DNA of 64,000 nt, taken from contig JBCCQY010000025.1 of the NCBI GenBank assembly GCA_039208735.1, positions 1-64,000 on the forward strand, in the 5' to 3' direction. Shown piece after piece: positions 38,318 through 38,533 of the stretch. The stretch is from Myxococcota bacterium. Its GTDB lineage: Bacteria > Myxococcota_A > UBA796 > GCA-2862545. The notes below the pieces were generated by a model. It was given only the letters and a program-made list of their open reading frames with translations, made no database searches and was not told where the DNA came from. The position numbers and the translations under genes were made by a program. The stretch's first letter is position 1. Every line of letters begins with the position of its first letter.

Positions 38318-38502
38318 CGTTCGTTGGCAACGGTGGACGGTGCCCGACCTCACGCACGCCACAGGACGCCACGACAGGTCGGGGCCTTGGAGTCTCGGTG
38401 GATGGAAGGGAGTTACGGCTGACCACAGCGCCGAGACGCGCAGGGTCAGCTACGACATACAGCAACACCAACAGACGGCGCAGCAGGCAATGGGCCCTGC
38501 GC
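38318..38502 (-). promoter_or_regulatory. attenuator-like leader with mutually exclusive helices upstream of metY
   Basis: Complementary segments: 38495-38502/38438-38445, 38444-38450/38418-38424, 38431-38437/38392-38398, 38376-38383/38343-38350, 38468-38477/38318-38327. Confidence 0.6.
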
Positions 38503-38533
38503 TCGGACGATGGTGTGGGTGGGTTGTCGGCAT
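38450..38533 (-). CDS. poly-cysteine leader peptide, 27 aa (MPTTHPHHRPSAGPIACCAVCWCCCMS)
   Basis: Read directly from the minus strand; 6 Cys codons in a 9-codon stretch followed by Met-Ser-stop, 142 nt upstream of the metY ATG. Confidence 0.8.
   Translation of the reverse strand: MPTTHPHHRPSAGPIACCAVCWCCCMS

Follow-up and report, generated by a model that had tools for sequence, protein, structure and literature searches.

A conserved cysteine-rich leader ORF, probably a ribosome-stalling attenuator, upstream of the metY operon of a Myxococcota bacterium

Introduction

Textbook control of methionine synthesis relies on SAM riboswitches, T-boxes and repressors. Among the classical leader-peptide attenuators, thrL has mixed Thr and Ile control codons that match two end products. 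The closest described systems include the leaderless polycysteine short ORFs of mycobacteria (the "Cys ribulon"), which act in cis according to the reporter and proteomic data in the accessible text of Canestrari et al. (bioRxiv 10.1101/834739); the word "homoserine" is absent from that paper. Cys leader peptides were predicted in Mycobacterium, Propionibacterium and Bifidobacterium, and Rho was proposed to be involved, in the consulted part of Seliverstov et al. 2005 (PMC1262725). The available portion of PMC8079986 describes, from RNA-seq, a leaderless metL leader before metNIQ in Streptomyces lividans that is proposed to be methionine-dependent. Cysteine uORFs have also been predicted before cysS in Rhodobacterales (uORFC-8-2, PMC8632094) and in Deinococcus (PMC4007540), as far as the accessible parts of these papers go. 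A comparative study, in its available portion, leaves the metY regulator unassigned in some taxa (PMC4239095), and the accessible parts of this study, of PMC2965389 and of PMC13236596 hold nothing on metY leaders. Our literature search, of incomplete coverage, found no report of a Cys or Met/Cys leader preceding metY or occurring in any myxobacteria-like organism; the supplementary leader tables of PMC4007540 and PMC8632094 may list some.

We have analysed a window of 64,000 nucleotides (contig JBCCQY010000025.1) from the 9.4-Mb genome of a Myxococcota bacterium, in which a short Cys-rich ORF precedes an operon headed by metY. The comparative data make it very likely that this ORF is the leader of a ribosome-stalling attenuator of the metY-metX-AK/HSDH operon. 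We regard it as a variant of the known mechanism, with Met added to the sensor and set in an order-wide sulfur ribulon.

Results and Discussion

The leader ORF and its operon

The ORF, with its features collected in Table 1, runs from an ATG at 38533 to a TAG at 38450 on the minus strand and translates as MPTTHPHHRPSAGPIACCAVCWCCCMS-stop. Its Cys codons come in the order TGC TGC TGT TGT TGC TGT within an interrupted nine-codon stretch, not in one unbroken run, and are followed by ATG, TCG and TAG. The distance from the leader stop to the metY ATG (38307) is 142 nt. An earlier note on this DNA had claimed a 27-codon minus-strand poly-Cys ORF in front of metY, with six Cys, a Met and a spacing of 142 nt, and all of this is confirmed.

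Table 1. Features of the metY leader region and operon, in the direction of transcription
Feature	Position	Strand	Basis or remark
Predicted sigma-70 -35 box TTGACG	38564..38569	-	read by eye; 17 nt ahead of the -10-like hexamer
Predicted -10-like hexamer GAAGGT	38541..38546	-	7 nt before leader ATG
Leader ORF, 27 codons	38450..38533	-	sequence reading; homologues in relatives
Cys codons, candidate control codons, 6 in 9 codons (3 TGC + 3 TGT)	38459..38485	-	
Met codon, probable last control codon	38456..38458	-	A-T-G invariant 8/8
Segment 1, 5' arm of helix A, GCTGACC	38444..38450	-	starts inside stop codon; pairs with segment 3
Segment 2, 5' arm of helix B, GTCTCGG	38431..38437	-	within helix A loop; pairs with segment 4
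Segment 3, 3' arm of helix A, GGTCAGC	38418..38424	-	
C-rich, G-poor tract, 19 nt, candidate part of Rho-loading site	38399..38417	-	function inferred
Segment 4, 3' arm of helix B, CCGAGAC	38392..38398	-	
G+C-rich hairpin without U-tract, CCCGACCT ... AGGTCGGG	38343..38383	-	sequence unconserved
metY Shine-Dalgarno GAGGAG	38313..38318	-	sequence reading
metY, O-acetylhomoserine sulfhydrylase	37033..38307	-	TIGR01326 652 bits, cut-off 495
metX-like homoserine O-acyltransferase	35885..37030	-	TIGR01392 196 bits, cut-off 500 not reached
Bifunctional aspartate kinase/homoserine dehydrogenase	33441..35888	-	NF006959 731.5 bits, cut-off 726

The downstream genes were previously described as a metY-metX-metL operon. 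This holds for metY, recognised by TIGR01326. The second product stays under the NCBIfam cut-offs, with homoserine O-acetyltransferases as its top PDB matches (E 1e-30), and is better called MetX-like. The third gene scores above the cut-off of the ThrA-type model and under that of the MetL-type model, so that "metL" is a label from context. As annotated here, the operon is predicted to encode a route from aspartate to homocysteine via direct sulfhydrylation.

A consensus promoter scan of the leader gave no sites. The promoter spacing is nevertheless compatible with a leaderless start in all eight metY leaders defined below. All seven homologous leaders have a TANNNT box whose distance to the start codon is 6-7 nt, and the -10-like box of the window deviates from it at the first base. 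These boxes suggest that metY leaders probably have leaderless starts. For the window leader, the reading frame extends upstream, open to a GTG at 38584 (44 aa), and an SD-like GGAAGG (38547-38542) overlaps the predicted -10-like hexamer; the two together leave a leadered start possible. Divergent from the leader promoter, genes for a response regulator and a PAS histidine kinase lie on the plus strand (window 38696-40604).

Conservation of the leader

MetY is present in 8 of the 48 other genomes of the family; the four genomes of the same genus gave no metY match. Five of the eight family metY loci have a Cys-rich leader ORF, with 132-206 nt between its end and metY, versus no leaders in reverse-strand controls at the 4-codon threshold. 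The three other family loci (L004, L007, L009) have neither a leader ORF nor an Rfam element. Further homologous leaders are present in an order-level genome (L090) and on a metagenome contig (L136), the latter found by a search in which the leader played no part; another metagenome locus (L119) carries the same leader as family locus L008. The set of eight metY leaders used below thus consists of the window, the five family loci, L090 and L136, with spacers of 132 to 231 nt. These eight are kin, and L003, L006 and L136 are nearly identical in their RNA part.

The eight leaders are 25-41 codons long, with unrelated N-terminal parts and unconserved Cys spacing. Their Cys codons comprise 18 TGT and 35 TGC, and this mixture across leaders indicates that the amino acid is kept rather than the codon. 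The comparison proposed with the earlier note, for in-frame Cys runs conserved in orthologous leaders with synonymous codons, came out positive at the five of eight family loci and at L090 and L136.

RNA structure downstream of the Cys codons

The invariant alignment columns are the Met codon, a GCTG five bases on, and the pairing partner of this GCTG. Helix A, which pairs segments 1 and 3, has 100% of cells paired with two pairs changed on both sides (6 distinct rows), and helix B, which pairs segments 2 and 4, shows compensatory changes in L005. The two helices cross. Both occur in seven of the eight homologues, and 0-2 of 200 dinucleotide shuffles attain the strengths seen there. In L008 the arrangement is nested instead of crossing, and 41 of 200 shuffles match its strength. 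For both helices together, the 7-row alignment without L008 (6 distinct rows) gave 90% of cells paired and six pairs changed on both sides, against 27-55% in slid controls. Helix B has a lowered value of 80.5% paired because MAFFT placed segment 2 wrongly in L001 and L090; a per-sequence search finds the segment. The structure was derived from the same related rows on which it was tested, and the covariation therefore supports helices A and B without proving them. The two helices may be alternatives or form a pseudoknot.

The spacing of these elements is regular. In seven of the eight leaders, 5 nt separate the Met codon from the first base of helix A (a constant 8-nt offset from the codon to the helix start), and the 5' arm of the helix is positioned where a ribosome at the stop codon would cover it, a classical competing-helix feature. 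Between segments 3 and 4, all eight have a C-rich stretch of 15-21 nt. Over the 60 nt past the stop, the C>G skew is 0.24-0.42 in the eight leaders versus 0.00 +/- 0.18 in 2,445 upstream windows of the genome. Helix A is the fold of the naked RNA, and whole-leader folding is no more stable than that of shuffles (z -0.75). The scan for intrinsic terminators gave 0 terminator-like sites, and the eight leader spacers contain no run of five U. Rfam gave no match in the window, in 20 related loci, nor up to E 5 in 38250-38750, so no riboswitch or T-box is recognised in the leader.

Sister leaders and a proposed sulfur regulon

The window's own genome has Cys leaders at three loci, before metY, cysH and a RimK-like gene. 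The leader on contig C78 (minus strand; L169, L173) is Cys-only and ends 57-81 nt before the cysH gene at 35520-34780, the operon being PAPS reductase (cysH)-sulfite reductase-siroheme synthase. On contig C5 (minus strand; L170, L203), a leader with seven consecutive Cys (about 48880-48805) precedes a RimK-like ATP-grasp gene (48715-47774), whose product gave no Pfam and no PDB match. Leaders with at least 4 Cys in 10 codons occur at 16 of the best 30 cysH loci and 14 of the best 30 RimK-like loci of the order; L209 was excluded from these counts, its Cys-rich frame being the opposite strand of a divergent metY. Their frequency before the RimK-like gene suggests a role of this gene in cysteine/thiol metabolism, and would thus assign a probable sulfur role to an ATP-grasp family lacking a Pfam hit. 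In genome G036 (C369:954-3371; L004, L209), metY and the RimK-like gene are divergent neighbours and neither has a Cys leader; this pair links both genes and shows another kind of control. The cysH leader of L183 has ten Cys in a row. At L174, L177 and L179 tandem Cys leader ORFs precede cysH, the first followed by a hairpin, with a U-tract in some; they are putative stacked attenuators. U-tract hairpins are also present upstream, before cysH, at L182-L186.

The best explanation for the three leaders of the genome is that they form a sulfur ribulon reading Cys alone before cysH and the RimK-like gene, and Cys plus Met before metY. The same genome has one SAM-I riboswitch match (75 bits), before a homoserine dehydrogenase-metB operon (C23:58120-58239, minus strand; L166, L171). 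The earlier note inferred that the metY operon reads sulfur status rather than SAM; the organism does use SAM, at this other operon, and the control of methionine synthesis appears split between SAM and the leader. We also considered metY-metX as the sole cysteine route of the organism and rejected it, since the genome has a CysE-like gene (sub-cut-off) adjoining cysteine synthase A, plus CBS/CGL-like genes.

Cysteine only, or cysteine plus methionine

A Met codon lies in the Cys cluster of all eight metY leaders versus 4 of 30 cysH/RimK-like leaders. Counted by codons, this is 19 of 132 in the metY leaders and 4 of 456 in the sister leaders, a Met enrichment with a Fisher p of 1e-5 that is nominal and overstated by kinship. 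In 21 of the 30 cysH/RimK-like leaders an ORF-coded helix arm follows 4-8 nt past the last Cys, and helix A of the metY leaders starts 5 nt after the Met, so that the Met appears to occupy the slot of the last sensor codon. Because the Met codon is invariant and, in this lineage, specific to metY leaders, the metY leader probably senses both Met-tRNA and Cys-tRNA. In the earlier note, the operon was gated by Cys-tRNA availability. Conservation of the Cys run, the negative Rfam result for riboswitches and T-boxes, and covarying alternative helices within reach of a stalled ribosome fit this proposal, and the Met invariant in 8/8 makes a Cys-only version too narrow. In the window leader, with one internal Met, Cys probably dominates the signal.

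The same attenuator could be Cys-only, its Met being retained for RNA-structural or historical reasons. The window leader has six Cys to a single internal Met, and the Cys/Met codons of some homologues can pair with downstream RNA. Against this, the ATG is outside helix A and invariant amid varying neighbours, several homologues have 3-7 internal Met, the cysH and RimK-like leaders of the same lineage are nearly without Met, and a second, unrelated family of metY leaders has two invariant Met codons. We thus consider a Cys-only sensor unlikely, and retain the Cys plus Met reading.

Proposed mechanism and alternatives

From the ORF, its conservation, codon content, helices and spacing, which are observed directly, we infer translation, stalling, an ON fold and an output as follows. 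The mRNA would start at or beside the leader AUG. A shortage of Cys-tRNA or elongator Met-tRNA would stall the ribosome in the C-C-C-M tail and leave segment 1 free; helix A (1:3) could then form, and the operon would be ON. When both tRNAs are plentiful, the ribosome would reach the stop codon and melt segment 1, which would allow helix B (2:4) or an open C-rich state, and the operon would be OFF. For the output, premature Rho termination on the C-rich spacer seems the most likely option, with slightly less than an even chance of being correct; pausing or decay at the U-less hairpin is a tentative second possibility, and occlusion of the Shine-Dalgarno sequence is a little more doubtful still. 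A Rho gene is present in the genome (C175:10854-11945, L164, divergent; TIGR00767 366 bits, sub-cut-off, and above the NF006886 cut-off), and Rho was found in 46/49 genomes of the family and 20/22 of the neighbouring family. The search for Rho was negative in G006 (97% complete, with 2,522 bases withheld) and G073 (94% complete), both of which have the leader and the helices; congeners of G073 have Rho, so this may reflect assembly gaps. A Rho site requires about 60 nt or more, and the C-rich tract is short for such a site, which argues against a Rho output.

Two alternatives concern the nature of the ORF itself. A Cys-rich frame could arise by chance at 64% G+C, and off-frame Cys-rich stretches do exist, with at least 5 Cys in 10 codons at 149 places of the genome. 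At least 6 Cys in 10 codons occur at 16 places in the six frames of the whole genome, and in three short ORFs among the 6,261 that lie upstream of the 3,409 genes given by a rough gene call. These three ORFs precede metY, cysH and the RimK-like gene, and two of the three head sulfur-amino-acid operons. When the 400 nt 5' of metY were shuffled in dimer blocks 20,000 times, 6 Cys in 9 codons never arose. As the leader is moreover conserved among relatives with covarying helices, and two further loci of the genome share its design, a chance ORF is so improbable that we regard it as ruled out by the comparative data: the leader ORF is real, beyond chance. Alternatively, the peptide may itself be the product, either a metal-binding mini-protein or a RiPP precursor, its position being incidental. 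Short Cys-rich peptides are indeed able to bind metals. This is very improbable here, given that N-terminal sequence and Cys spacing are unconserved and length varies from 25 to 41 aa, that the ORF is always first in sulfur operons and coupled with RNA helices, and that the operon has no modifying enzyme.

For the attenuator itself, the direction of the switch and its output have to be weighed. We lean towards helix A as the ON fold. In the inverse logic, as at mycobacterial Ms5788A, helix A would be the default OFF state, a stall on C-C-M would weaken it, and helix B would be ON. That A is the naked-RNA fold agrees with this logic, as do the C-rich tract and segment 4 staying open in fold A, three homologues with a Cys one step past the Met and itself within an extended helix A, and a Shine-Dalgarno sequence that is slightly easier to open in fold B in 6/7 metY leaders. 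On the other side, the early Cys codons are up to 32 nt from segment 1 and unable to melt it; in sister leaders the equivalently spaced helix has a downstream hairpin as its competitor, with a U-run after the stop in 3/30; and in the two sister leaders of the genome a ribosome at the stop raises the cost of opening the Shine-Dalgarno sequence by about 5 kcal/mol, as expected in the classical sense. The inverse logic thus appears possible and the less likely of the two. As to a translational output, the A/B switch would be relayed to a helix masking the metY Shine-Dalgarno sequence. This is the output demonstrated for Ms5788A, according to the available text of bioRxiv 10.1101/834739. For L006 an anti-SD helix is predicted, and the computed cost of opening goes up from about 9 to 11.5 kcal/mol when the ribosome reaches the stop, while 6/22 sister leaders show an increase of more than 2 kcal/mol; the two leader-bearing assemblies lacking a Rho match point the same way. 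In contrast, 3/22 sister leaders shift in the opposite direction by more than 2 kcal/mol, the spacer varies from 132 to 231 nt with an unconserved anti-SD, and in the eight metY leaders neither the position of the ribosome nor the choice of fold A or B shifts the opening energy consistently (at most 2 kcal/mol), according to equilibrium models that are weak evidence at 64% G+C. We therefore consider a translational output rather unlikely.

Comparison with described leaders

Like the mycobacterial Cys ribulon, as presented in the accessible text of bioRxiv 10.1101/834739, the metY leader is a short unannotated ORF with a C-terminal Cys run, likely leaderless and first in a sulfur operon, with several such loci per genome and no intrinsic terminator. 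Among the traits of the ribulon, Cys codons near the ORF end before sulfur genes, synonymous codons in orthologues and several loci in one genome are found here. It differs from the system in that text in its lineage, its methionine-operon target, its added Met codons and its crossing A/B helices. Occlusion of the Shine-Dalgarno sequence is demonstrated there for Ms5788A, and none is predicted for the metY leader, known here from its sequence. The leaders in the consulted part of PMC1262725 have in common with it a Cys run near the stop, a pyrimidine-rich spacer and no terminator hairpin; that part describes neither a conserved RNA element ahead of methionine operons nor conserved hairpins, whereas the helices of the metY leader covary. 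The metL leader of S. lividans, in the available portion of PMC8079986, likewise has interleaved Met and Cys near the stop, hairpins and no Rho-independent terminator, but controls a transporter and belongs to the Actinomycetota. Control codons followed by a helix arm overlapping the stop are shared with the classical attenuators trpL, hisL and thrL, and with the Rhodobacterales cysS leader uORFC-8-2 as far as its source was available.

As in thrL, the control codons of the metY leader are mixed and match two end products. Unlike the trp, his and thr attenuators, metY leaders are without a U-tract terminator hairpin. SAM-I riboswitches and T-boxes also act from the 5' leader of methionine genes, and the metY leader has no Rfam match. 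It would extend the Cys ribulon beyond mycobacteria. The set of leaders, Cys-only or Cys plus Met, with and without a U-tract, constitutes a natural series for sensor tuning.

metY leaders in other lineages

A short ORF with at least 4 Met/Cys in 8 codons was found at 16 of the 80 metY loci listed, in many phyla; the reverse strand gave 1 and shuffled sequences 0.4. The majority are from Acidobacteriaceae, and the others include Chloroflexia, Psychroflexus and a gammaproteobacterium. A leader counting Cys- and Met-tRNA would explain the control of many metY genes that have no known regulator. We would give roughly even chances to the broader proposal, drawn from these comparisons, that the order runs its sulfur metabolism by a leaderless stalling regulon with codon-tuned sensors and a two-helix, possibly pseudoknotted, switch gating Rho, and that Met/Cys leaders, i.e. 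attenuation by elongator Met-tRNA, are a main control of metY across phyla (at the above 16/80 listed loci).

Leader ORFs with interleaved Met and Cys precede metY in these taxa at L011, L019, L027, L031, L048, L051, L058, L060, L061, L063, L072, L079 and L088, and further Chloroflexota loci have weaker Met-Cys-Met leaders with a common tail. The second metY leader family (L116, L120, L122-L124, L127, L128, L133-L135, L138, L139, L141) is unrelated to the window leader. In 11 aligned members from metagenome loci, its two invariant Met codons are accompanied by a Cys pair and by frame-preserving indels. The helix set of this family is also different, and strong -35 and -10 boxes precede the start by 8-9 nt.
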